Origin: Candidatus Hermodarchaeota archaeon
GTDB lineage: Archaea; Asgardarchaeota; Hermodarchaeia; Hermodarchaeales; Hermodarchaeaceae
NCBI GenBank assembly: GCA_016839365.1
Contig: JAEOUH010000092.1
Location: 1 to 15,212, forward strand
Length of the DNA: 15,212 nt
Direction of reading: 5' to 3'
A program made the translations under genes and the position numbers. Of the stretch, positions 2 to 15,212 are shown piece after piece. Under the pieces are notes generated by a model. The model was not told the DNA's origin. It worked only from the letters and a program-made list of their open reading frames with translations, and ran no database searches. How positions within the stretch are numbered: position 1 is the first letter of the stretch; every line of letters starts with the position of its first letter.

Positions 2-307
2 CAAGATGGATCCTTTGTCGAATCGAAACAGGAATCAAGCGGTATCCACTGTGAAGTAGACAAAACCGGTAAGAAAATCCGAATGATTGTGCCTCAAGGC
101 ACCAGCCTCATTGAACGACGAACAGCATTGCGACTGGCTGACACCGTTGCGCGGAGTGGATATCTATTATCAACCGGCGAACGCGTCGGACAAGGTTACG
201 AACTTGTTGTCGATGAAAAAGGCTCAGCAATACCAGATCGACTCAAACAAAGTCCAAGAGTCAGCTACAGCTCGGTTACAGTTGGCAGCGTCGTCGACAA
301 GAAGTAG
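2..307 (+). CDS. 5'-truncated hypothetical protein, putative single gelsolin-like domain
   Basis: Frame is open from base 2 (QDGSFVESKQESSGIHCEVDKTGKKIRMIVPQGTSLIERRTALRLADTVARSGY...), so the ATG at 83 is probably internal; ends TAG at 305-307. The strand-turn-strand then ER-x-x-AL-x-x-A helix pattern resembles gelsolin repeats. Product call is an inference. Confidence 0.5.
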   Translation, partial: QDGSFVESKQESSGIHCEVDKTGKKIRMIVPQGTSLIERRTALRLADTVARSGYLLSTGERVGQGYELVVDEKGSAIPDRLKQSPRVSYSSVTVGSVVDKK

Positions 308-392
308 GCCACACTCCGTGAAATGGTGAAGCGTTCCAAATATCAGATGAAAACAAGGCTGCAAGACATCCTGACCAGTTGAGGTGATTGAT

Positions 393-569
393 GTGAGCGA
401 AGAAGAAAGTAAAGGGGTCTCTTTGAGCGAGGAGCTGAAGCGCGAAATTAAGAGGGGCGCAAGTCTCGAACACGCACCAGAAGTCAAACCCAGAGAATTT
501 GACTTATCCGCTGAGAAAGCCCTCCTCGAAAAGCTCAGAGCAGAAGGGAAACTCGAAGAAGAGGAGTAA
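393..569 (+). CDS. Small charged protein (58 aa) with WH2/beta-thymosin (actobindin)-like motifs
   Basis: Strong SD GAGGTGA at 381-387, 5 nt before GTG at 393 (the ORF-track start at 384 lies inside the SD); TAA at 567-569, followed by an inverted repeat and a pyrimidine tract. Motifs ELKREIKRGASLEHA and EKALLEKLRAEGKL. Coding status well supported; WH2 function inferred. Confidence 0.6.
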   Translation: MSEEESKGVSLSEELKREIKRGASLEHAPEVKPREFDLSAEKALLEKLRAEGKLEEEE

Positions 570-610
570 CTCCTCCCCCTCGTCGATAAATCCCTCCCAT
601 TTTCTTTTCC
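561..610 (+). terminator. Putative terminator of the small ORF (inverted repeat over the stop codon plus T-rich tract)
   Basis: GAGGAG(561-566)-TAA-CTCCTC(570-575) perfect inverted repeat, followed by TTTTCTTTT at 600-608, between convergent genes. Confidence 0.45.
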
Positions 611-2314: not shown

Positions 2315-3187
2315 CTAAGCAACCTGTGGGAAGGCTACCTCTGCTGCAGCTCCCATTAGGGTCTTAAATAGTAGTTCCTTGTTACGAGGATCAATGGCGA
2401 CCAAGCCAATGGTTCGGAGTCCAAGTAGCCGGGCAACAGTATCAGGAAGGAGAGCATCTTTCAAGTCCTGCTTATTTGCAATTGCCCAGACTAAAGCACC
2501 ATCAGTCCATTTCTGAATTATCGGAATCAGTTTCCGAGTTGACATCACGTTCTTTAATGTCGAATCGGTGACCATTAACACAACATCTGTCCCACGGAGA
2601 TAATCTTTCCATTTTGGAACCAACAGTTCCTGACCAGGGAAGTCCCAAACGGCCAGTTCATAAGGGCCAAGCTTTGCCGTTTGCATCTCTTCTACGTACA
2701 CGGCCATTGTAGCTATATGATTGAGGTCGGCGCGTTGACTCATGAGCATTCTTAGGATTGTGCTTTTGCCCACACCGCCTTCGCCGAGAAGGACAATCTT
2801 GAGTGTAGACACAATGGCTTGATCGATGACAGGTCCAAGTCCTTGGAAAACTTGTGAATTCCTGTTACTTTTGAAATCCCAGATCTGTTTGGCGAATTTT
2901 TGCTTCATGGTCCGGACGGCGTTGTCGATTTTTTCTTGAAGTATTTCGTCTTTGTCTTGACGATCAGCGACCAAGACGAGGATGAGGTCCGAGTCGACAT
3001 ATTTATGGATGAATTTCATGCCATCCAAAAAGATGGGCACGGGGAGATCTTCGCCGGTGTCTCTTTCGAGCTGGCGGAGAGACTGTATATATTCAGAAAC
3101 GACTGGTTGGTCAATTTCAATTGCCCAGTATGAACGGTGGAAGAGTTTGATGCCGTTTCTGGTGATTAACAGGACGTTATGTATCAA
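2315..3187 (-). CDS. Longin-domain / Arf-like small GTPase fusion protein
   Basis: N-terminal ~125 aa longin-like (MIHNVLLITRNGIKLFHRSY...KFIHKY...LILVLVADRQD). C-terminal G-domain: G1 GEGGVGKS, G2 T in HIATM, G3 WDFPGQ, Arf-type WKDY, G4 ANKQD. Confidence 0.85.
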   Translation of the reverse strand: MIHNVLLITRNGIKLFHRSYWAIEIDQPVVSEYIQSLRQLERDTGEDLPVPIFLDGMKFIHKYVDSDLILVLVADRQDKDEILQEKIDNAVRTMKQKFAKQIWDFKSNRNSQVFQGLGPVIDQAIVSTLKIVLLGEGGVGKSTILRMLMSQRADLNHIATMAVYVEEMQTAKLGPYELAVWDFPGQELLVPKWKDYLRGTDVVLMVTDSTLKNVMSTRKLIPIIQKWTDGALVWAIANKQDLKDALLPDTVARLLGLRTIGLVAIDPRNKELLFKTLMGAAAEVAFPQVA

Positions 3188-3323: not shown

Positions 3324-4823
3324 TCAGCTTGGACCATGGGGTAGTGAGGAATTCTTATGACGCTTCATGAAGTTTTTCGCAATCGCATTCAAATCTTGAA
3401 GTTGTGAGTCGTCTAATTTGGGTACGTCGTGGGTGGTTAGAATCTCTTTGACACGCTCACGAGCACGGTCTAAACTGGTCAATGCTCCTTGGGATTGCCA
3501 GCTTTCAAATGGTTGGCGGTCGACTAATTTACCTGGCATATAGTGTTCTTTCCTGAACCAGGCTAGCGTATGACGTAAGCGGAGGAAATCTCCACCTTTT
3601 GTCCCGACTTCTCGGAGCTCATCTAGAGCAAGGGTGTCATCATTCACTTCAACGCCGGTGATGAACCGTTTCATCATCCCCGCAAGCATGTCGTCGATGA
3701 CAAGCTTCTCATAACTTTGGGTGCTTTCAAAAATAAGCATCCCTGCACCAGCGATATTGTTGATTCCTGCCATCGCCGCAAGAAGAAAACCGGTTGCTGC
3801 TTCATAGCCCACTTGTGCATCGGCACTAATTTTCGCATCTGAAAGGCCCATGTACCCGTGGGTTGGGAGGTTGTAATGTTTTGCTATCTGTGCATAGGCG
3901 CATGTGAGCATCATGCTTTCAATGGCTCCCAGCCGTGCTGTTCCATACTGCATATCGACAGCTGTAGGAGAGCCGCCATAAATTACCGGTGAACCTTTCT
4001 TTGCAAGTTGAGTGAGTACAACACCACTTAGCGACTCAGCATTATGCAATACCAAAGACCCAGCGATTGTAATCGGACCGGTTGCTCCGAGTTGGGGCAT
4101 TGAAATAAGTTCAATTGGAATTCCGGCAGCCGCACCGAGTAGGAGATCATGAACTGTCAGTTCACTCCACTGTAATGGAGCAGATGGACATGTATCAAAG
4201 ATGGCACGTGGTTTGTCTCGGAGCTTCTTGGGTCCCCCTGCTATGACTTCAAGCATTTGCTTCATATCGTCAAAGGCGTCAAGTGCAAAGGTGCCGGTTA
4301 TGATGGGTTTTGTTGAGTGCTGTAGGAGTAGGTATAGCCGGTAGCGATCCGCGAGGAGTGGAGGTACATCTGCTGGGATGAGGGCCGTGCTTTGAGCGTC
4401 GATGAATGGTAACGCATCAGTGACTCGGGCGAAGTCGATAACATCTTTGACGGTTGGATGCCGTCGCGCACCGGTTTCTCGGTCCAGAATATGCGTTGCA
4501 GCCGAGCCTGGATTGAATTGGATTTGATTTCCTTCAAGGAGAACAGCGGGATGCCCTTCACGATCAAATAGCTGGATTGAGGATGGTGCATGTTTTATTT
4601 GCTCTTCAACGAGTGAAGAGGGGAAATAGGCATGCTCCTTGTCAAAATTAACTGAGGCTCCGGCTTCTTTGAGGAGTTCTAATGCGTCACGGCTTTGGAT
4701 TTTCATTCCAACTTCCTCAAGGAGAGAGAGGCTTTCTGAGTGAATTTGCTGAATCTCCTGCTCCGAGAGCATCTTCAATTGGGGTCTTTGTGTCAATGTC
4801 TCTTGTCTCCGATGTTGTTTCAT
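3324..4823 (-). CDS. Trimethylamine methyltransferase (MttB) superfamily, non-pyrrolysine member (methylated/quaternary amine:corrinoid methyltransferase)
   Basis: LSEQEIQQIH..SL.LLEEVG start, GATGPITIAGSLVLHNAESLSG, GSPVIYG, GLSDAK..DAQ.GYE, GAGML...SYEKLVID; no in-frame TAG. Its ATG overlaps the stop codon of the corrinoid gene (ATGA, 4820-4823). Confidence 0.92.
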   Translation of the reverse strand: MKQHRRQETLTQRPQLKMLSEQEIQQIHSESLSLLEEVGMKIQSRDALELLKEAGASVNFDKEHAYFPSSLVEEQIKHAPSSIQLFDREGHPAVLLEGNQIQFNPGSAATHILDRETGARRHPTVKDVIDFARVTDALPFIDAQSTALIPADVPPLLADRYRLYLLLQHSTKPIITGTFALDAFDDMKQMLEVIAGGPKKLRDKPRAIFDTCPSAPLQWSELTVHDLLLGAAAGIPIELISMPQLGATGPITIAGSLVLHNAESLSGVVLTQLAKKGSPVIYGGSPTAVDMQYGTARLGAIESMMLTCAYAQIAKHYNLPTHGYMGLSDAKISADAQVGYEAATGFLLAAMAGINNIAGAGMLIFESTQSYEKLVIDDMLAGMMKRFITGVEVNDDTLALDELREVGTKGGDFLRLRHTLAWFRKEHYMPGKLVDRQPFESWQSQGALTSLDRARERVKEILTTHDVPKLDDSQLQDLNAIAKNFMKRHKNSSLPHGPS

Positions 4824-5473
4824 CCTTCTGTCGCGCCTGTCAACCGTTTTGCGATTTTCACTGCTTGATTAAAATCAACACCGTAACCATCAGCACCAAT
4901 GCTGTCTGCGAAATCTTGGCTGACTGGTGCTCCACCCACCATGATTTTTACCCGTTGATCAAGTTTTTCCGTTTTTAATAGCTCAATGGTTTCTTGCATC
5001 CGGTCCATAGTCGTGGTCAATAACGCAGACATCGCAATAATATCCGCGTTGACTTCCCTGGCTTTGGAGACGAACTGAGCTGGTGTCACCTCAACACCTA
5101 AATCATACACGGTAAATCCCGCCACCGTTAGCATGGTCGCCACAATTGATTTTCCGATATCATGGATATCCCCTTGCACCGTACCTATCACGATAGTACC
5201 CAGGGCATCCTCGTCTTGAGATTTAGCCAGATGGGGTTCAAGGAATTCAAGGGCCTGTTTCATCGTTTCCGCGGCTACTGCGAGTTCTGGCAAGTAGGCT
5301 TCGCCTTTTTCAAATCGATCACCTAACACTCGAATACCTGCCGTAAGCCCTTGGTTGACAATAGTAGTTGCATCAATTCCTTGATCAATGGCCTTCGGAA
5401 CAAGGTTGAGAACTCGTTCAGTCTGACAATTAATCATCTCTTCACGAATTTCATCAATAATTTCATTTCCCAT
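4820..5473 (-). CDS. Methyltransferase cognate corrinoid protein (MttC/MtbC family)
   Basis: N-terminal helical cap (GDRFEKGEAYLPEL); B12-binding GTVQGDIHDIGK (DxHxxG), SALLTTT, MVGGAPV. Confidence 0.95.
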   Translation of the reverse strand: MGNEIIDEIREEMINCQTERVLNLVPKAIDQGIDATTIVNQGLTAGIRVLGDRFEKGEAYLPELAVAAETMKQALEFLEPHLAKSQDEDALGTIVIGTVQGDIHDIGKSIVATMLTVAGFTVYDLGVEVTPAQFVSKAREVNADIIAMSALLTTTMDRMQETIELLKTEKLDQRVKIMVGGAPVSQDFADSIGADGYGVDFNQAVKIAKRLTGATEG

Positions 5474-5507
5474 ACAGTATCCACCTTATCTCATTGGTAC
5501 TGTTGTG

Positions 5508-6554
5508 TTACTCAATGATTTCCCAATTACGCTGGTATTTGTCAAGTTCAGTTTTGGTTCGTGCATCCATAGGGTGTTCTCTATCTGGGATGTCCAGAGC
5601 TTTTGGTTCACCACACAACGGAGTGCTGAAGTAGCGTTGTCCACTGTCATTAATCATGGTCACAATCGTTTTGAGTTCAGGGTGTCGCTTTGCTAGTTTC
5701 AGAGCTGCGGCAACATTACACCCTGACGAGATTCCACAAAAGAGTCCTTCTTCGCGGCTGAGCCATTGAGCCATTTCTAGAGCTTCATCTGAGGTTGTAG
5801 TAATGATTCCATCTAACATGCTCAAATCGAGATTCAAGGGCACAAATCCATCGCCAATGCCTTCGATGTGGTGAGATCCCCATTTTCGATGTGCGAGAAG
5901 GGGCGCTTCCGTAGGCTCAATGGCATAAAGCTTCACCTTTGGATTCTTCTCACGCAAGAATCGTCCCACGCCTGTTATCGTTCCCCCAGTGCCTTGGCTA
6001 GCGATGAACGCATCCACGTTTCCAGCAGTCTGTTCCCATATTTCTTGACCTGTCGTTTCATAATGGGCAAGAGGATTATCTGGATTGCTGAACTGTGCGG
6101 GTTCCCAATATTTTCCTGGATTCTGCTCTTTTAGTTCCTTAGCTTTCTTTAGACACAAGTCCACATCAGATTCCCCACCCGGAGTGAGGATAATCTTAGC
6201 GCCATACGCCGCCATGAGTTTTCGACGTTCTTGACTCATCCCTTCGGGCATGATTATGGTCACGGGGTAGTTCAACATCCGACCAACAAAGGAACAGGCA
6301 ATACCGGCATTTCCCGTTGACGACTCGATGATCTCCATACCTGGTTTTAAGTCTGCACGGGCAATGGCTTCGTGGATCATCTTGTAGTAGATACGGTCCT
6401 TCAGGCTCCCTGTGGGTGAATACCATTCGATTTTTCCTAGGATATTGACTCCCGCCTGCTTGCTAATCTTTGGCAAGCGCAACAATGGCGTTAGACCAAT
6501 GAGGTCAAAGACATTCTCTTGGACCTGCTTGTATTTTTCCCAGTTTAAGGGCAC
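5508..6554 (-). CDS. cysK: Cysteine synthase family PLP-dependent enzyme (CysK/CysM/CBS-like)
   Basis: IGLTPLLRL, PTGSLKDR (PLP lysine), ESSTGNAG, GTGGT phosphate loop, HHIEGIG, GISSG, DSGQRYFS. Start set at GTG 6554 because AGGAG (6564-6568) lies 9 nt upstream; the ORF-track TTG at 6563 abuts that SD. Confidence 0.9.
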   Translation of the reverse strand: MPLNWEKYKQVQENVFDLIGLTPLLRLPKISKQAGVNILGKIEWYSPTGSLKDRIYYKMIHEAIARADLKPGMEIIESSTGNAGIACSFVGRMLNYPVTIIMPEGMSQERRKLMAAYGAKIILTPGGESDVDLCLKKAKELKEQNPGKYWEPAQFSNPDNPLAHYETTGQEIWEQTAGNVDAFIASQGTGGTITGVGRFLREKNPKVKLYAIEPTEAPLLAHRKWGSHHIEGIGDGFVPLNLDLSMLDGIITTTSDEALEMAQWLSREEGLFCGISSGCNVAAALKLAKRHPELKTIVTMINDSGQRYFSTPLCGEPKALDIPDREHPMDARTKTELDKYQRNWEIIE

Positions 6555-6597
6555 AATAAACAACTCCTAACAAATCAGTCGCAGCATAGTCTAGCCC

Positions 6598-6607
6598 GTA
6601 TATAAGC
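6598..6607. promoter_or_regulatory. Putative TATA element in the divergent cysK/sfsA intergenic region
   Basis: GTATATAAGC reads TATATAA on + and TTATATA on -, about 45 nt upstream of the cysK start. Confidence 0.5.
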
Positions 6608-6691
6608 ATACAGCTTCGTGGGATGCACGAGGCGAAGAATCATAAAGGAACAAGACAGGGCAAAGAGAAAAGACCAGCAGGAGCCCTTTCT

Positions 6692-7411
6692 GTGAAACTT
6701 CAAGGACCCTTTCATTACGGAAATTTTCTCGAACGTCCCAATCGATTTCTCACTATCTGCCAACTCAACCGAAAACGTGTTCAAGCTTACATCCCCAATC
6801 CAGGGCCTATGCCTGATTTACTCTTTCCTGGGGTCGAGGTCCTTCTTCGACACAACCCTGGTGTTCACAGGAAAACAGATTACGATTTGGTCTGTTCCCG
6901 TAGCCAAGGGGTTCTGCTCTCTCTCGATTCCCGTGTTCCCAACTGGATTCTAGCCGAAGCGCTTCCAAAAGGTCAACTACCCCCGTTTTTACAGTATAGT
7001 GAATTCATCGCTGAACCCCAATACCGTGAGAGCCGTCTCGACTTTCTTCTACACTCAGAGGGTGTCTCCTCATGCTATATTGAAGCAAAATCCTCGACTG
7101 ACGCTGTGGACAAAATCGGTTTATTTCCCCGTGTTCCAACCGAACGTGGACAACGACATCTTCGGGAGCTGATGCAAGCCGTTGATGAGGGGTATCGCGC
7201 AGCCATTGTATTCATTGTTCAGCGCACTGATGCTACTAGGCTGCGACCGAATGACCTTGTCGATCCGGAGTTTGGAACAATCTTACGCAAAGCCGTCAAG
7301 CATGGTGTTGAAGCCTACGCGTGGACTACACGCTTTGACGAATTAAGTCACGAGATCGTCATTGATCAGTCCATTCCCGTCGACCTGACTCCGCCCAGCC
7401 ATGCAGACTAG
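6692..7411 (+). CDS. sfsA: Sugar fermentation stimulation protein A (SfsA; OB-fold plus PD-(D/E)xK nuclease)
   Basis: FLERPNRF, IPNPG.M..LL.PG, RKTDYDL, SRLDFLL, YIEAKS, FP..PTERGQRHLREL, FIVQR, DPEF. Start set at GTG 6692 with AGGAG at 6679-6683; ORF-track ATG is 6623. Confidence 0.92.
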   Translation: MKLQGPFHYGNFLERPNRFLTICQLNRKRVQAYIPNPGPMPDLLFPGVEVLLRHNPGVHRKTDYDLVCSRSQGVLLSLDSRVPNWILAEALPKGQLPPFLQYSEFIAEPQYRESRLDFLLHSEGVSSCYIEAKSSTDAVDKIGLFPRVPTERGQRHLRELMQAVDEGYRAAIVFIVQRTDATRLRPNDLVDPEFGTILRKAVKHGVEAYAWTTRFDELSHEIVIDQSIPVDLTPPSHAD

Positions 7412-8482
7412 CTAGCTGAATTGTCCATATTTTTCAGCTGCTGCTACCATAGCCCGGATATTGTTAAGAGGAGTTAACGGTGGCACCTCACAACCGCTAC
7501 TCAGGATAAAACGCCCATCTTGACCGACTGTTTCAATGCACCACTTTGCAGCGGCTTCCACCTCAGCTGGTGTTCCATTCAAGAGAAGTTCGGTTGGATT
7601 TAGGTTTCCCATTAAAATCACCTGTTGCCCGATGTGCTCTTGAGCCTCTTGCATATCCACAAGATGATCGAGTTCCAATATTTGTACCTCTGTGCTTGCC
7701 ATCTGGTCTAATATCATAGCTGTTTTTCCGCAAATATGCAGTGAAGCAATACTTCCTACCCGGGTAACTGCCTTAGCGATTTGAGTAAGATGAGGGGCTG
7801 CAAAGGTGGCAAATGTCTTTGGGCTGATGAGGCTACCGCTTGCCGTAGGATCTGCTGTTACAATGACATTAACACCTGCTTCAACGTTGGCTAGAGCATA
7901 CCGCATGGACGCTTTAGTGGTCAGACTGAGGAGGGTGCTAACAAATTCGGGGTTGCGAATCGTTGCTACCATTAAAGCATTGACACCTGCAAGCTGCCCA
8001 GCCAAGGTGAAAGGGCCGGGCGTATAGGCAAAGAGCGGCACGTCACAATTGACCGCATCTTTCACAAGTTTCACCATTTCCATGTGGAGAGGTAAACGCC
8101 CGGAGCTATGGGGATCTGGTATCGCCACCTTATCGATATCGTTTGGGGACTTGACGATATGATCCGCCACTTGTGGAACTGAATCTTTGGGGAACCGCAT
8201 CGTACATCCCATCGCCTCGGCTAACAAATTAAACGAACTTTCCCATCCCACATAGATGGCGTCATATCCGAGTTCACGTTGCCCAGCCAAAAGCGCTTCT
8301 GCAGTCTTTTCAGGGCTATGGAGGGCTTCCACTAAGCCAACTCCAGTTATCTGCGCGGTCGTATAGGTGATTTGTGGAATAACGGGAACGCGATCTGGCT
8401 GCTCTCCACGAAGTAGGCTCATAACACGTTGAAAGGGAGTAAGTGAAGGCATTTGTTCGCTTCCACAGTTTTTTGATTCCAT
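7412..8482 (-). CDS. MtaA/CmuA-family methylcobamide:thiol methyltransferase (UROD superfamily)
   Basis: LTPFQRV..LLRGEQPDRVPV start, EAMGC, PGPFTLA, DPTASGSLISP, zinc ligands LHICG and SSGCEVP, GNLNP. Start may be the ATG at 8452. Confidence 0.85.
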   Translation of the reverse strand: MESKNCGSEQMPSLTPFQRVMSLLRGEQPDRVPVIPQITYTTAQITGVGLVEALHSPEKTAEALLAGQRELGYDAIYVGWESSFNLLAEAMGCTMRFPKDSVPQVADHIVKSPNDIDKVAIPDPHSSGRLPLHMEMVKLVKDAVNCDVPLFAYTPGPFTLAGQLAGVNALMVATIRNPEFVSTLLSLTTKASMRYALANVEAGVNVIVTADPTASGSLISPKTFATFAAPHLTQIAKAVTRVGSIASLHICGKTAMILDQMASTEVQILELDHLVDMQEAQEHIGQQVILMGNLNPTELLLNGTPAEVEAAAKWCIETVGQDGRFILSSGCEVPPLTPLNNIRAMVAAAEKYGQFS

Positions 8483-8576: not shown

Positions 8577-8656
8577 GACAAATATCCACAGTTTGGGTGG
8601 GGAATGTGTCTTCCCCCACGCGCGTGCCGGATAGGCTGGGTTCGGATCCGATACCT

Positions 8657-9613
8657 ATGTCTGAAAACAATCGACGGAAGGCTCAACCAGATACAACTCC
8701 TTCAGAGGACGAACCACAAACCTGTCCCAACTGTGGAAGCAATCACCTTATTATGACATCCTCGCGTGAACTTGTCTGCTCCAATTGTGGTCTCGTAATT
8801 AGCGATGATGTCCTCGATTTTGGAGCCGAATGGCGTGAATTCTCGCCCGAAGAACGTGATAAACGAGCCCGTGCTGGACCTCCCTCTACGCTCACAATGC
8901 ACGACCGTGGACTCTCCACAACCATCGATTGGCGAGATGTGGATGCACGAGGACATAAACTCGATGCCCATCGGCGAGCGGAAATGCAACGTATCCGTAA
9001 ATGGCACAACCGCAGCCGCGTCTACCAAGCCAGTGAACGGAACCTCGCAAGTGCCATGAGTGAACTTGACCGCTTATCGGGGCAATTGGACCTGCCCCAA
9101 CGAGTCCGACAGTCAGCTGCTCTTCTTTATCGACGAGCCCTAGATAAGAATCTCATTCGTGGACGCAGCATTGAAGCTATTGTTGCGGCGTGTGTCTATG
9201 CTGCCTGTCGTTTCACCAGCTTCCCTCGAACCCTAGCCGATGTCGGACGATATACACGGGTTGGACGAAAGGAACTGGGTAGATCATATCGACTCATTGT
9301 CCGACGACTGGGCCTCCAAATGCCAATCACCCAACCTGAGGATTTCGTTTCACGCTATACCAATGCCCTCAAACTCTCCCAACGCACCCATGCCCGAGCC
9401 CTTGATATTCTCATGAAAGCTCGGACCAAGGGCATCACCTCAGGCAAGGACCCCACTTGCATCGCCGCCGCAGCCATTTATATTGCCTCGATTCTGGAAG
9501 GTGAACGCCGAACCCAACGTGAAATTAGCGAAGTCGCTGGAGTCACCGAAGTCACCGTGCGGAACAGGTACAAAGAACTTGTTCGGGCTTTTGATCTTGG
9601 GGTCGAAGTTTAG
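8657..9613 (+). CDS. tfb: Transcription initiation factor IIB (TFB)
   Basis: Zn ribbon CPNCG...VCSNCGLV, B-reader EWREF...RARAGPP, HDRGLST.I, ERNL, LIRGRSIEA, PRTL, RRTQREISEVAGVTEVTVRNRYKEL. Start uncertain (ATG 8657 or GTG 8597). Confidence 0.96.
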   Translation: MSENNRRKAQPDTTPSEDEPQTCPNCGSNHLIMTSSRELVCSNCGLVISDDVLDFGAEWREFSPEERDKRARAGPPSTLTMHDRGLSTTIDWRDVDARGHKLDAHRRAEMQRIRKWHNRSRVYQASERNLASAMSELDRLSGQLDLPQRVRQSAALLYRRALDKNLIRGRSIEAIVAACVYAACRFTSFPRTLADVGRYTRVGRKELGRSYRLIVRRLGLQMPITQPEDFVSRYTNALKLSQRTHARALDILMKARTKGITSGKDPTCIAAAAIYIASILEGERRTQREISEVAGVTEVTVRNRYKELVRAFDLGVEV

Positions 9614-9747
9614 ATTCACGCAAACCGAGTTTCCTAATCATTCAGTCTAGACAAAGCTACTTAAAGTCACATTCCTGAGTGTATGGAAGGTTTCCAGCTG
9701 AGGCGTTTTAATGCCTTAAGCTAGTTTTACATTTGGAAGCGGTCATT

Positions 9748-11712
9748 GTGAAACGATTATCATTACTATCCGGGCTTTTCTGCATGGCGGTCATCTTTGC
9801 CCTTCTTAGCAATCCCGTTACCGCTGAAGCAATCTCCGGTTCAACGAATATCAATAAAACAGTCCACTCAACTTCGATATTAACAACCACTCCTCAACGA
9901 AATCCCGTTCCAATACTCGCACCACCATCTCCTGCAGGAGAATATGTTGTAATTATCGTAGAGACTGGGCTGTGGGGTTTGACGGCAATTCAGAATGCCG
10001 TGAATACCTATCGAATGGACTTAAACAATACCGGATATAACACAATCCTCTATACTAGCACCATTGCCAACGCCCCTGCGCTACGTACATTGTTGCAAAA
10101 CTGGTTCTCGACAAATAACATCATTGGTGCAGTGCTCATCGGCAACCTCCCCTATATCCGGTTCTATCATCCAGCGAACACCTCTGGTCAAAGTGGCGGT
10201 CAAGGTACATATGGGGCTGATACCTTCGTATGTGATCTTTATTATATGGACCTAGATGGTAATTGGTTCGATACAAATACCGACACCATCTATGATGTCC
10301 ACAACGCATCTTCAGGGGCTGATATTTTTCCTGAAATCTACGTTGGTCGTATTGATGCCACCAACCGTGTATTAGGAAGTCAAACCAACGCCAATGATAT
10401 TATCACTGTACTTAACAGAATCCACTCCTATCGGGTTGGTGGTGTGGCACGGACGCATCGAGCGCTAACCTACATAGATGACGATTGGCAATTATGGGCT
10501 GATGGGACATATGATAATTGGCCTGCTTGGCTCAATAATGCCTATCCGACTCGTACTGATGTCCATACCCCCGCAACTTGGACTAATGCCACCGATTGGC
10601 TCAATAATCGGATAAACCAAGACTATGAATGGGCTCATCTTTGTGCCCATAGTGGAGCCTCTCCTGGTACTCACTATTTCGGTCCAGGGGGCTCAGGTGA
10701 AGGCACAGTCACGTCCACACAAATCCACAACCAAGTTCCCACTTTTAACTTCTATAACCTCTTTTGTTGCCATGGGGCTGATTGGATTACCACCGACGAC
10801 CTGGCCACCACCTACCTGTTTTCTGGTAGTCATTCACTTGCTGTCGTTGGAACGACCAAAACCGGAGGAATGCTAGAAGGATCAAGCTTCTATAATGCGC
10901 TAGGTCAGAATGAAACGCTTGGAAAAGCCTTAGGGACTTGGTTCCAAGGCATTAAAAGCTACGCGTATTATTGGCTTGAATGGTTCTATGGCATGACAAT
11001 CCTGGGAGATCCGTTCCTCACCACCCACTATGATATCACCGCACTTGCTCCTACAATTTCCTCCTCGACACATCCAACTCAATCCCAGTGGTCAACTAAT
11101 CCAACCCCTCAATTCAACTGGACCATCCCCGTTGATGTGAACGGTATTGCAGGTTACTATTATATCATTGACCAAAATCCGACCACCATCCCTACTGCTG
11201 CAACAGGGACCTATACAACAATTAACGGAACCCTCTCCTCAACGCCTTTAGCTGATGGAACTTGGTATCTCCACGTTGTTAGCAAAGATAATGTTGGCAA
11301 TGTTGGATCGGAAGCCGCACATTATCAAGTAAACGTCGATGCAACAAATCCAACTGTCACCATCACGTCACCTACTACTGGTAGTTTTGTTTCAACCACA
11401 TTTGATCTTGTCTGGACAGTTACTGAAACTGGTTCTGGTTATAGTACAGCTGACATCTATGTGAACACTTCACTATTCACAACCATCAGTGCACCTCTCT
11501 CCAACACCACCATCACTGATCTCATAACAGGCACATACGTGATCAATGTCACGGTCTTCGACGTTTCAGGGCTCAGTGGGTCACATCAAATCACTGTCAT
11601 CGTCTTACCTCTCCTACCGCCAGGAATTCCGGGATTCCCATTTGAGGCAATTGCATTAGGAGCCATCCTTGCGGTCAGCCTTGGGGTCTTATATAGACGA
11701 CGTCGACGCTAG
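9748..11712 (+). CDS. Secreted, membrane-anchored peptidase C25 (gingipain)-like protein with Ig-like domains
   Basis: Signal peptide (KRLSLLSGLFCMAVIFALLSNPVTA); C25-like motifs VLIGNLP, DLYYMDLDGNW, PEIYVGRI, candidate dyad CAHS / LFCCH, AVVGTT, ILGDP; Thr-rich beta-sandwich region (LADGTWYLHV..KDNVGN; D.TNPTVTITSP); C-terminal IPGF-TM-RRRRR. Start GTG 9748 or TTG 9733. Confidence 0.75.
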   Translation: MKRLSLLSGLFCMAVIFALLSNPVTAEAISGSTNINKTVHSTSILTTTPQRNPVPILAPPSPAGEYVVIIVETGLWGLTAIQNAVNTYRMDLNNTGYNTILYTSTIANAPALRTLLQNWFSTNNIIGAVLIGNLPYIRFYHPANTSGQSGGQGTYGADTFVCDLYYMDLDGNWFDTNTDTIYDVHNASSGADIFPEIYVGRIDATNRVLGSQTNANDIITVLNRIHSYRVGGVARTHRALTYIDDDWQLWADGTYDNWPAWLNNAYPTRTDVHTPATWTNATDWLNNRINQDYEWAHLCAHSGASPGTHYFGPGGSGEGTVTSTQIHNQVPTFNFYNLFCCHGADWITTDDLATTYLFSGSHSLAVVGTTKTGGMLEGSSFYNALGQNETLGKALGTWFQGIKSYAYYWLEWFYGMTILGDPFLTTHYDITALAPTISSSTHPTQSQWSTNPTPQFNWTIPVDVNGIAGYYYIIDQNPTTIPTAATGTYTTINGTLSSTPLADGTWYLHVVSKDNVGNVGSEAAHYQVNVDATNPTVTITSPTTGSFVSTTFDLVWTVTETGSGYSTADIYVNTSLFTTISAPLSNTTITDLITGTYVINVTVFDVSGLSGSHQITVIVLPLLPPGIPGFPFEAIALGAILAVSLGVLYRRRRR

Positions 11713-12633: not shown

Positions 12634-13902
12634 TTAAGTCAACCATTCGATGTTTGCCCCCAGTTTTCGCAACACCGCGATAAGCTTCTCTTCGTCCACA
12701 CCAATGCGTCGGGCGATATCACTTGAGGTATTGTTCCCATCACAATAGGATTTGGCGTCTTCTAAGATTTTGTATTCATCACGGGGGAGTCCAACGGTTT
12801 CCAGATAGGCGAGGAACCTCCGGTCGCTGGCGACAAGTTTCGGGTAAAATTGAACTCGTCGGATGTATCCCCGTGTAGAGAGGTAGCTGAGAATTTCCGA
12901 TAATTGCCGTCCATGGACTCCGGTTCGAATCCGAATTTCTTCCACCGTTGAGATCCCGTCAACAGCTTGAAGGACATCACGGCCTGCTTTGCCAAATAAA
13001 TTATCAAATTCTCGGGCTTGTCCTGTGCTTTCAGCAAAGAGGGTACTTTCCATCATGGGATTAGAAGCGAAGACATCAAATTCTGAGAAGGTTTCAGTAA
13101 TTAATGTTTTAGGCTGAACTTTTACCATACTCGAATAGTCAATATTGCTAAGACCATAAACTAGCGGTGATATCATTTCTGCACATCGACCGACCTTCAT
13201 ATCTTCACGGATTATCACCAGCAAAACCAAATCTGGTTTAAGGTGATGAACGAAGAGTTTAGTGCCTTCTTCCAGAGTAGTTTGAGATACAGCAAAATAA
13301 CTTGGCAGCTCCATGTTTCGGGATTGATGGATTTGGCGTGAACCAACTTCAAACTCGTGTTGTGATAACTTTGAGGCAATTACAAATCCATCCTGAGTAA
13401 GCAATGCAGCTCGCAAAATGCCACGTTGTCCCTCAATAATATTGAGTAGTTCTTCGATTCGCTCAAGGTTTTCAGGAGGAATAATCGCTGTGGGATAGCG
13501 TTGCTGGATTTCGGGTATCTTATCATATTTTTTTAGAATCTCCATGACATATTCGCGGAATCCAATAAACAGGTGAGATGAAAGGACTGATTGCTGTAAA
13601 ACATGACCATATTGCTTTTCAAAAGCTTGGGCAATTTCTTTGATGATTAATCGGTAGATGTTCTCATCATCAGCTTCACCAATCGCAATGATGAAAAGCA
13701 GATCCGCCTGGCTCTCATAAACAAACTTGTTCTCAGCGAAGGTGACGACCCTTATCTGCCCTTCACCAATTTCTTCAGCAAATCCTGCCTGTGCTGAAAG
13801 AAAGCCTGCGACGAGGGCATCAAGCTTCGGAGCTCCATCGGGAGCAAAATTAAACAAGGGCATACCGCCCTTCCGAAGAACAATAATCTCTCTAACAGGC
13901 AA
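12634..13902 (-). CDS. Multidomain longin + roadblock-like + tandem winged-helix protein
   Basis: SD GGTGA (13909-13913) 6 nt before TTG. Approx. aa 1-125 longin (IIVLRKGGMPLF...LVAGFLSA..FAEEI...KFVY...LLFIIAI); approx. aa 145-250 roadblock-like (GILRAALLTQDGFVIAS...DLVLLVII); two C-terminal wHTH-like units (VLQAVDGISTVEEI...LSYLSTRGYI; YCDGNNTSSDIARRIG). Confidence 0.75.
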   Translation of the reverse strand: MPVREIIVLRKGGMPLFNFAPDGAPKLDALVAGFLSAQAGFAEEIGEGQIRVVTFAENKFVYESQADLLFIIAIGEADDENIYRLIIKEIAQAFEKQYGHVLQQSVLSSHLFIGFREYVMEILKKYDKIPEIQQRYPTAIIPPENLERIEELLNIIEGQRGILRAALLTQDGFVIASKLSQHEFEVGSRQIHQSRNMELPSYFAVSQTTLEEGTKLFVHHLKPDLVLLVIIREDMKVGRCAEMISPLVYGLSNIDYSSMVKVQPKTLITETFSEFDVFASNPMMESTLFAESTGQAREFDNLFGKAGRDVLQAVDGISTVEEIRIRTGVHGRQLSEILSYLSTRGYIRRVQFYPKLVASDRRFLAYLETVGLPRDEYKILEDAKSYCDGNNTSSDIARRIGVDEEKLIAVLRKLGANIEWLT

Positions 13903-13993: not shown

Positions 13994-14048
13994 CCCTTCC
14001 CACTATTGTTCACCCCCATCTTGTATTGCATCTGTGGAGAACAATGCG

Positions 14049-15212
14049 ATGAAACGTGACAAAAATTGGGCTATATCAGCGATCCTTGCTCTCCCCTTTG
14101 CTTGGGTCATCGCGTTTCTCTTATTCATGCATCCAGTTTTTCTATCTGATCCGGTTCTTCTTCTCCCAGTGATAATCGGATTATTCCTCGGCCTCCTAGT
14201 CGGGGGCTTTATTGCAGACAAACTGCCTGGACGAAACCTTCTCCTTGTTCTCTTTCATGTAATGATTCTGGTTATCGGAATCGCACAATGGATACTTCCA
14301 ACAGGATTTTGGAACTCCTTATTCGGTCAGCTTCTGCTTGCCTTTCTCCTTTTCCTGTTCGGCAGCGATCTTGTACTCTTCACTGTTTTTCTCAACCGAT
14401 TAGTATCTAGTGTGAATCGTGAAAGAGTCGTAGCTATTACGACTGCAGTCAGTCTTTTTTTCTCGGGTCTCTTTCTGTTCTCATGGAAATTTTTTGGCGG
14501 AACAAATTTCGCTCCTACGGTTACAGCCGGACTGATTCTCTTCAGTCTACTGGTCGTGTTTTTCATTCAACCGTGGAAGGGAGAACTACAAACTTATTTG
14601 GTTCCAGGTTTTATCCGACCCTATGCAGCCTGGTGGGTCATCTACTTAGCCGCGTTCGGGTTGTATGTCTGGGCGACACGACTCGAATATCGTCATTTGT
14701 TCAATGGCTTATTTTACAACGCACCAGAACTTCTTCCTCCAGAACTTGTTTTGATGGGCTTTTGTGGAGCCGCCCTCCTTTTTGCCCTAGTACCTTATAG
14801 ATTTGGAAGAAAAGTCGTGTTCAACATCGGCACACTTCTTTTGGGCTTACTCTGCATCTTTGGGGGCGCTCATGAGGAATTGTTGATTGCCGATACTGTT
14901 TCCATCGTCTTATCAATCTTATCGGCTTTTGTTGTTGCTTTCATAATTGGAGTGGGGGCCTGGCTCGTCTGGGCTGAAATTGGATCAGTTCGGATGAAAG
15001 GCCGTCGCGCTGCATTTGGATGGTTGATGGTAGGGTGTCTTATTGGGATTATTTGGTGCATTACTGTATTCTCATCCTACTCATTGACTCCGTTGCTTGT
15101 ATACCCCATTGCGGCTTCTCTGGTACTAATCAGCATATTTCCATTGACAAACGCCCGAGAGGTAATATGGAATGAACGCCTCGTTGAGGACATCGATGTA
15201 AGTGTGGACAGC
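14049..15212 (+). CDS. 3'-truncated MFS-like polytopic membrane protein
   Basis: Translated by hand: open from ATG 14049 (GGAG at 14036-14039) to the window end, 388 codons, MKRDKNWAISAILALPFAW...; about 12 hydrophobic segments; motif-A-like GGFIADKLPGR and its second-half echo LVPYRFGRK; WAEIGSVRMKGR. Absent from the ORF track because there is no stop codon in the window. Confidence 0.8.
   Translation, partial: MKRDKNWAISAILALPFAWVIAFLLFMHPVFLSDPVLLLPVIIGLFLGLLVGGFIADKLPGRNLLLVLFHVMILVIGIAQWILPTGFWNSLFGQLLLAFLLFLFGSDLVLFTVFLNRLVSSVNRERVVAITTAVSLFFSGLFLFSWKFFGGTNFAPTVTAGLILFSLLVVFFIQPWKGELQTYLVPGFIRPYAAWWVIYLAAFGLYVWATRLEYRHLFNGLFYNAPELLPPELVLMGFCGAALLFALVPYRFGRKVVFNIGTLLLGLLCIFGGAHEELLIADTVSIVLSILSAFVVAFIIGVGAWLVWAEIGSVRMKGRRAAFGWLMVGCLIGIIWCITVFSSYSLTPLLVYPIAASLVLISIFPLTNAREVIWNERLVEDIDVSVDS

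Follow-up and report, generated by a model that had tools for sequence, protein, structure and literature searches.

The stretch of DNA analysed here, referred to as the window, represents the first 15,212 nucleotides (nt) of contig C81 of an Asgard archaeal genome that is 84% complete. At its 5' edge, two small co-oriented open reading frames (ORFs), ORF1 (2–307, + strand) and ORF2 (393–569, + strand), are separated by an intergenic spacer of 85 nt. An earlier note on this DNA had described the pair as a candidate co-transcribed actin-regulatory module, composed of a gelsolin-like capping/severing protein and a WH2-like monomer-buffering protein. Our analysis indicates a probable two-gene actin-related unit, of which the gelsolin part is well supported and the WH2 part hypothetical. 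ORF1 is very probably a gelsolin-fold protein of the gelsolin/cofilin superfamily, where it represents a distinct subfamily with the single-domain 'ProGel' architecture, whereas ORF2 is a 58-residue microprotein of no known family that is a candidate for WH2/thymosin-like actin binding. The picture as a whole, i.e. a two-gene actin-regulatory unit, is put forward as a tentative one, with the odds standing slightly against it.

Conservation and organisation of the gene pair

ORF1, whose stop codon occupies positions 305–307, is open at the 5' edge of the window. The first 127 nt of the window are identical to the end of another contig of the assembly (C13), and reading through this overlap places the ORF1 start at a GTG codon located 17 nt before window position 1, with a GGGTGA ribosome-binding site preceding this codon by six nucleotides. 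The full-length protein comprises 107 residues, the first six codons of which are located on C13. The join between C13 and C81 is supported by the C13 gene upstream of ORF1, as this gene is an orthologue (52% identity) of the gene that precedes ORF1 in relatives. ORF2 starts with GTG at position 393 and is preceded by the Shine-Dalgarno sequence GAGGTGA (381–387, + strand); since the start codons of its relatives (ATG, GTG or TTG) align with position 393, this position was preferred over an in-frame GTG at 384.

Close homologues of ORF1 (29 sequences) and ORF2 (51 sequences) were all derived from Asgard metagenome bins, and all were annotated as 'hypothetical'. Among 400 Asgard genomes, the ORF1 profile matched 254, while the ORF2 profile matched 19, which are all the members of the family-level taxon to which the window belongs and represent two genera; outside this taxonomic family, ORF2 was not found in the 400 genomes. 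In each of the 19 family genomes, ORF2 was located on the same strand as ORF1 and 66–122 nt behind it, demonstrating that the adjacency and orientation, for which the earlier note had proposed a synteny survey, are conserved in related genomes of both genera. In the main genus, the surrounding genes keep their order over >10 kb; in the second genus, the pair persists though the downstream genes differ. The median pairwise ratio of non-synonymous to synonymous substitution rates (dN/dS) was 0.13 for ORF1 and 0.10 for ORF2, with dS values of about 1.3–1.5, and this low dN/dS, indicative of purifying selection, shows that both ORFs are translated genes.

The spacer (308–392, + strand) lacks a T-tract, its longest T-run being 2 nt, and in homologous spacers from 22 loci (66–122 nt) T-runs never exceed 3 nt. 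Alignment of these 22 spacers revealed conservation of 'ctc(c/t)gtgaaa' just past the ORF1 stop and of the Shine-Dalgarno sequence, present as GAGGTGA 5–7 nt before the ORF2 start at all 22 loci; the remainder of the spacer is variable, and no conserved TATA-like element was observed in the alignment. An oligo-T tract resembling archaeal terminators (T4CT4; 600–608, + strand) follows 31 nt past the ORF2 stop, within the gap that separates ORF2 from a convergent flavin mononucleotide (FMN) reductase gene on the minus strand (629–1525), and is presumed to act as a terminator. The absence of a T-tract and of an obvious TATA box between the genes, as well as the presence of a terminator-like feature after the second gene, are therefore in agreement with the earlier description. 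The pair thus displays the hallmarks of an operon, namely a common strand, a short spacer, no terminator between the genes, an internal ribosome-binding site and an order kept in 19 of 19 genomes. On these features, which are read from the DNA sequence, co-transcription of ORF1 and ORF2 is likely.

A second copy of the pair, with a frameshifted ORF2, was observed in one genome (G099, locus L087, G099:C408:297-469), in which the copy at G099:C389 is intact; the frameshifted copy may represent a strain mixture or an assembly error.

Predicted fold and sequence relationships of ORF1

An AlphaFold2 model of ORF1, built from the family alignment, showed a β-β-β-β-α-β-β-α order with predicted local distance difference test (pLDDT) values of 77–88 in the core. 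A mixed β-sheet is packed on one long helix and accompanied by a short C-terminal helix, which corresponds to the gelsolin type of fold. Foldseek searches with this model retrieved Thor ProGel first (E=4e-3) and thereafter gelsolin-type domains only, the best matches being Thor ProGel, Loki 2DGel, adseverin and gelsolin. The gelsolin-like domains of Sec23/24 were shown to match the fold at lower Z scores (5.8 and 4.1), and the nearest structures are, by a clear margin, actin-binding gelsolin domains, above all Asgard ProGel.

Sequence comparisons point in the same direction. Alignment of the ORF1 family with a 255-residue GelX-like protein encoded by the same genome (contig C67) using hhalign yielded an E value of 3.2e-5 over 72 columns, with a probability of 73%. 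When the gelsolin domain of this 255-residue protein was used as a query, it matched ORF1-family genes in other genomes (E=6e-6 to 5e-5), as well as 1DGelX-like genes across Asgard. The 255-residue protein carries WLWQGASTSLVERRAAQRKARSLVSAGYQL, the ORF1 counterpart of which is IVPQGTSLIERRTALRLADTVARSGYLL, along with the sequence WLWQG, and exhibits weak matches to ProGel (E=0.32) and to PF00626 (E=0.4). These signals are weak but were obtained in both directions, and they support homology at the sequence level between ORF1 and recognised gelsolin-domain proteins. Taken together, the fold matches and the weak links to 1DGelX place the gelsolin-like assignment on a stronger footing than the 'motif-level' one at which it had originally been proposed. 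The most conserved parts of ORF1 were shown to be the long helix, which is arginine-rich, and the loop that follows it, while a C-terminus reading P(D/E)RLK-x-SPREVY is present in most Asgard lineages that carry the family.

Several observations count against this assignment. No match to the Pfam gelsolin family (PF00626) was obtained with ORF1 and 22 family members at E values up to 10, a result whose weight is limited by the HMMER filters, which drop weak matches; Asgard ProGel-type domains are, moreover, known for being difficult to recognise from sequence (PMC7444086). Searches against PDB sequences, performed with both the protein and the family profile, produced chance-level matches only. 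The (D)W-x-G motif that precedes the long helix is absent from ORF1, which reads RMIVPQGTS (i.e. IVPQG) at this location; no tryptophan was seen in the ORF1-family members shown, and the wider family reads L-x-(V/I)P-x-G-x-S. The missing motif marks ORF1 as part of a divergent subfamily, the motif being a signature of gelsolin domains and not a fold-level definition.

Other candidate relationships were discarded. A likeness of the ORF1 N-terminus to the OB-fold protein uS12 (E=0.21) was ruled out by the fold searches, and the LKHS/LKQS sequence of ORF1, considered as a WH2-like box, is located in the short second helix, some 20 residues before the position of the 2DGel box. Pfam matches of ORF1, ORF2 and their families to GTP1_OBG (E=0.008–0.14) and GAAD (E=0.026) were both rejected as noise, and PDB sequence matches of ORF1 and ORF2 (ribosomal uS12, OpcA, the C-terminus of ATP synthase alpha and LSm2) were at chance level.

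By analogy with its closest structural relatives, ORF1 is fairly likely to bind actin. The capping/severing activity that had been envisaged for it was not adopted, because ProGel, the nearest solved relative and likewise a single-domain protein, binds G-actin weakly and bundles filaments without severing them, and because an X domain, or else a second gelsolin domain, is required for both severing and capping (PMC7444086).

Sequence and predicted structure of ORF2

Alignment of 35 ORF2 sequences revealed two conserved blocks. The first, (S/N)(L/F)-x-(E/D)ELKREIK-x-G-x-K-L-(E/D/A/K)-(H/K/S)-(A/V), includes the WH2-like segment (residues 11–28, LSEELKREIKRGASLEHA; 423–476, + strand), in which an amphipathic helix is followed by G-x-x-L-E-H-A; in this block, I19 is nearly invariant, and E14, L15, K16, R17, E18 and L25 are fully so. 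The second block corresponds to the C-terminal helix (residues 37–54; 501–554, + strand), represented by an almost invariant DLSAEKALLEKLRAEGKL in which nearly all residues from D37 to K53 are fixed, and is followed by an acidic tail. A resemblance of this helix to the WASP 'C' region or to ESCRT MIM1 motifs was considered and set aside. The AlphaFold2 model of ORF2 consists of a helix (residues 2–20), an 18-residue coil (21–38) and a second helix (39–50) with pLDDT values >90, at a predicted template modelling score (pTM) of 0.33. This low pTM and the helix-coil-helix arrangement, devoid of tertiary packing, indicate that ORF2 is not globular, and ORF2 is thus predicted to form a short, non-globular, extended chain of the WH2/thymosin kind.

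WH2 domains, which are disordered until bound, consist of an N-terminal amphipathic helix that bears an LL-x-x-(L/I) box and of an extended LKKV segment behind it (PMC8102491, PMC12871907); the LKKV box comprises an invariant leucine, a basic pair and then V/T or another small residue (PMC12871907). The corresponding stretch of ORF2, ELKREIKRGASLEHA, resembles WH2 domains (PF02205) and beta-thymosins (PF01290) at motif level only, in its N-terminal amphipathic helix, along one face of which L11, L15 and I19 are aligned, in its I-x-x-G-x-x-L-x-x-(A/V) sequence at WH2 spacing, in the invariant leucine of the LKKV box and in the predicted extended chain. The linker between the LKKV-like box and the C-terminal helix of ORF2 encompasses nine residues, which is also its length in thymosin beta-4. 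It was the leucine/isoleucine/leucine positions, their spacing and the helix-extended-helix order of the earlier WH2-like proposal that held, whereas the basic dipeptide, Pfam or PDB matches and an above-chance motif were not recovered.

The case against a WH2 assignment is accordingly substantial. Only one leucine of the LL box is present, E-L being found where a Leu-Leu dipeptide is expected, and the LKKV box reads LEHA, with E-H in place of the basic dipeptide; most relatives carry L(E/D/A)H(A/V) or L(E/Q)SA, and K-K (KLKKA) is found in three distant members only. With the 35 family members, no Pfam WH2 (PF02205) or thymosin (PF01290) match was obtained at E values up to 10, and no WH2 or thymosin chain in the PDB was matched at the same threshold by the protein, family or motif profiles, although very short motifs seldom reach HMMER thresholds. 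A relaxed WH2 pattern (L...I..G..L.[KRH][AVTS]) occurred four times among the six-frame ORFs of at least 40 residues in the genome, and once among those of at least 100 residues, compared with 1.05 occurrences expected from shuffles of the same ORFs. Conservation in ORF2 peaks in the C-terminal helix, which is unrelated to WH2 domains and beta-thymosins, rather than in the WH2-like half. In addition, ELKRE is wholly invariant, including positions that are solvent-facing in a WH2 domain, indicating that another ORF2 partner may exist, and the family is narrow, being limited to one family-level taxon.

As the statistical tests were negative, the likeness to WH2 remains a hypothesis, for which conservation, architecture and context speak, but the motif itself does not. 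ORF2 was not classified as a member of the WH2 or beta-thymosin families, and its binding to actin in a WH2/thymosin-like manner is possible but somewhat doubtful. An exhaustive ORF2 profile search across 1.84 billion representative proteins returned four true relatives and no fusions. One further match, P0084 (3,548 residues, nine stretches), was dismissed as spurious, as this protein is repetitive and S/E/K/N-rich, and matches the linker region only.

Similar microproteins in Loki-type genomes

Weak ORF2-profile matches led to a microprotein of 50–51 residues in Loki-type genomes, with the sequence M(T/S)-x-LG-x-ELK-x-EIKKGV-x-LQKV followed by an E/K-rich helix. Its gene, present in 124 of the 135 genomes of that family, is flanked by genes for a GNAT acetyltransferase and for Pelota (e.g. 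L105:1501-1653, + strand; L104:1501-1653, – strand; L023:2484-2630, + strand; others in L104–L115). A gap-free alignment matches the microprotein to the N-terminal block of ORF2 (ELKxEIKxGxxLxKV), with E, L, K, I and L in common, and the microprotein comes nearer than ORF2 to the WH2 consensus. In the genomes searched with the motif profile, such small ORFs were matched in three Loki-type families and in the genus of the window, and nowhere else. Twelve Loki-type microproteins gave no Pfam WH2 or thymosin match at E values up to 10, HMMER does not link the ORF2 and Loki-type families at library scale, and the likeness between the two families may not reflect homology.

Fused or longer Loki-type forms were not recovered, as none of 8,000 word-sharing candidates passed, though true ones were probably crowded out by E/K-rich words. 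One genome (G138) was shown to encode a 500-residue protein (L151:1491-2990, + strand) that consists of about ten tandem microprotein-like units of the form (I/L)(L/I)-x-E-I-x(5)-L-x-x-(I/V)...E...K-x-x-R-(L/M), the first of which is ILEEIKKGPALQKV.

Proposed mode of action and alternative explanations

In the proposed mechanism, the pair would constitute a small operon of an Asgard archaeon, in which ORF1 may act, by analogy with ProGel, as a weak monomer or side binder, or as a bundler, rather than as a severing protein. ORF2 would be a co-expressed, intrinsically extended microprotein, the N-terminal helix, G-x-x-L-E-H-A segment and C-terminal helix of which could extend along an actin monomer as WH2 domains and beta-thymosins do, and it might thereby hold or hand over actin monomers. 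Co-transcription, actin binding by either protein and cooperation between the two are what we infer for the pair. The window's genome also encodes a Lokiactin (cut by a contig end), two 2DGel and three GelX-like proteins, all on other contigs, and an actin system is therefore present. A structural objection to cooperation is that gelsolin-type and WH2 helices occupy one common cleft of actin and cannot share a monomer at that site, so that any joint action of ORF1 and ORF2 must use different sites or different subunits. This objection is addressed by a variant, considered unlikely, in which the pair represents a 'split gelsolin': ORF2 would supply in trans what 2DGels have in cis behind domain 1, namely a WH2-like strand that runs up the face of actin, together with a second contact made by its invariant C-terminal helix. 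If true, ORF1 and ORF2 would assemble on one or two neighbouring actins as a two-chain capping/sequestering complex, and ORF2 and the Loki-type microproteins would represent the first free-standing WH2/thymosin-type monomer binders outside eukaryotes.

Two alternatives concern ORF2. It could be a dedicated partner or regulator that binds ORF1, for example via its C-terminal helix, with a merely coincidental likeness to WH2. That ORF2 exists only directly behind ORF1, that its C-terminal helix exceeds its WH2-like part in conservation, that ELKRE is more invariant than the actin-facing side of a helix requires and that the WH2 motif match is at chance level are all consistent with this possibility; yet 235 other Asgard genomes possess ORF1-family genes without ORF2, and no obvious ORF2-linked change was seen in ORF1, as some members lack the ORF1 C-terminal tail motif GSVVDKK but retain ORF2. 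Weighing these points, a dedicated ORF1-binding role appears rather improbable, if not strongly so. Slightly less probable still is that ORF2 is a lineage-specific protein unrelated to actin, with its adjacency to ORF1 reflecting conserved gene order in a young and narrow clade. Such a scenario would accommodate the gene order kept around the pair in the main genus, the confinement of the family to two genera, the lack of any family, structure or literature match for ORF2 and the location of the similar Loki-type gene between GNAT and Pelota genes instead of cytoskeletal ones. It is at odds, however, with the persistence of the pair and its spacing in the second genus despite different downstream genes, and with the retention of the Shine-Dalgarno sequence and the short T-tract-free spacer although dS is near saturation, as would be expected for one transcript; furthermore, the positions common to ORF2 and the Loki-type family are those critical to WH2.

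A third alternative pertains to ORF1, which might employ its gelsolin fold on a partner other than actin, for example in a role like that of the gelsolin-like domain of Sec23/24, or in one with small GTPases or trafficking proteins. Besides the absence of the gelsolin tryptophan motif and of a Pfam match, the lower-scoring Sec23/24 matches and the arginine-rich helix, this idea derives support from gene neighbourhoods: in family f12, a Ras-family GTPase gene directly follows the relative of ORF1; in family f32, what follows is a SNAP/TPR-like gene, close to which a Roadblock gene is found; and in the window, an Arf-like GTPase gene is located 1.7 kb away. Small GTPase genes are, however, very common in Asgard genomes, which makes this neighbourhood weak evidence. 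Moreover, ORF1 is structurally nearest to actin-binding gelsolin domains, foremost among them ProGel, crystallised in complex with actin, and its sequence links are to proteins of the 1DGelX type, whose target is actin (PMC7444086); in one genome, an ORF1 homologue is located 1.1 kb from a 2DGel gene. A non-actin role of ORF1 is regarded as distinctly unlikely.

Comparison with known actin regulators

By fold and single-domain architecture, ORF1 corresponds to the Thorarchaeota ProGel (PDB 7C2F; Akil et al. 2020, PMC7444086), from which it differs in showing no sequence match to it, even with the ORF1 family profile, in carrying IVPQG where ProGel has LWRGA and in the C-terminus of its own described above. 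ProGel binds and bundles actin (PMC7444086), whereas ORF1 is known here from its sequence and predicted fold. The Asgard 1DGelX and 2DGel proteins (PMC7444086, PMC9433394) contain a homologous gelsolin domain, and SL(I/V)ERR(T/A)A-x-R-x-A...(S/A)GY-x-L is common to the GelX-like protein and ORF1; unlike 1DGelX and 2DGel, ORF1 has neither an X domain nor a second gelsolin domain. In 2DGels, a four-residue WH2-like motif (LRRV, LKHV or LVDV) follows domain 1 in cis (PMC7444086, PMC9433394), while the WH2-like element of the present pair resides in a separate chain encoded downstream.

The only archaeal precedent found in print for such a microprotein is arcadin-2 of Crenarchaeota (Izore et al. 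2016, PMC5173319), whose short helix, encoded next to the actin system, binds a hydrophobic groove of the actin homologue and sequesters monomers, and which its authors likened to thymosin beta-4 (PMC5173319). Arcadin-2 differs from ORF2 in its length (203 residues), its phylum and its target, crenactin, and the two sequences bear no resemblance to each other; the arcadin-2 helix lies at the C-terminus and is tryptophan-dependent, with demonstrated activity (PMC5173319), whereas the role of ORF2 is that of a candidate.

Genomic context

No actin or profilin gene adjoins the pair, either here or in relatives, in answer to a question raised by the earlier note regarding the upstream region, and no cytoskeletal gene flanks the pair in the window or on the upstream contig C13; the first of these findings weighs against an actin-related role. 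Directly upstream of ORF1 in both genera is a gene for a protein of approximately 600–650 residues without a Pfam family (L002:3-1283 on C13, + strand), which is rich in N-x-(S/T) sequons and contains internal repeats and a C-terminal membrane anchor. On the genome's contig C67, three neighbouring genes encode gelsolin domains with extensions (255, 238 and ~318 residues; L063:970-1737, – strand; L063:37-753, – strand; and G000:C67:9607-9858, + strand, respectively).

Downstream of the pair, the FMN reductase gene is followed by an acylphosphatase gene and a small zinc-ribbon-like ORF (1799–2296, + strand) with two CxxC pairs (CPRCF...CSECGY) and no Pfam family, which is located between the acylphosphatase and GTPase genes and whose relatives comprise 98–111 residues (L003:8044-8340, L004:8005-8340). 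The GTPase (2315–3187, – strand) is a 290-residue protein with an Arf/Roc/Ras-type domain at residues 128–260; its N-terminal extension of ~120 residues shows a faint likeness to clathrin-adaptor small-chain/longin-like and SLM4 families, and the position of its gene is kept in relatives. The remainder of the window encodes a methylamine methyltransferase set (3324–8482), consisting of MTTB (3324–4823), a corrinoid B12-binding protein (4820–5473) and a URO-D/MtbA-like protein (7412–8482) with PALP enzyme and SfsA genes inside the set, TFIIB (8597–9613) and three proteins without a family (9733–11712, 12634–13902 and 14034–15212).

Among the relatives of ORF1 elsewhere, the f12 genes are followed on the same strand, ~45 nt downstream, by the Ras-family GTPase gene (L029:1155-1691, L080:3468-4019 and L081:3467-4018, all – strand). 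In f32, a large Asgard family, every ORF1-family gene has a co-oriented gene behind it that encodes a ~590-residue protein (L066:2188-3972, – strand, and the same position in L065–L076), the N-terminus of which matches SNAP/TPR repeats (E=2e-5), and which is adjoined by Roadblock/LC7 and aminotransferase genes. The homologue close to a 2DGel-like gene is encoded in genome G008 (L027:2025-2321, + strand), where the 2DGel-like gene (L027:3450-4076, + strand), which encodes IYVWLGKDSS, is separated from it by a hydrolase-like gene on the opposite strand. In genome G128, an ORF1-family domain is located C-terminal to a coiled coil of ~440 residues in a protein of 545 residues (L079:4055-5692, – strand).

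Significance for Asgard actin biology

In the papers searched, Asgard actin is regulated mainly by profilins and by gelsolins, i.e. ProGel, 1DGelX and 2DGel (PMC7444086, PMC9433394). Neither the ORF1-ORF2 gene pair nor a free-standing WH2/thymosin-like Asgard protein is described in these papers, where WH2-like elements appear only as the four-residue linkers of 2DGels. What is new is thus the ORF1 family, as a new subfamily of the known gelsolin family, with the microprotein half standing as a candidate only. The weight of that candidate is limited by a WH2 likeness that lacks statistical support, and ORF2 says little about the ancestor of eukaryotes, because its family is confined to one family-level lineage. 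If ORF2 does bind actin monomers, it would nevertheless represent a thymosin/WH2-type sequestering peptide in the archaeal relatives of eukaryotes. The ORF1 family, present in 254 of the 400 genomes and not covered by a Pfam model, adds a separate and widespread family of single-domain gelsolin-fold proteins to the Asgard repertoire.

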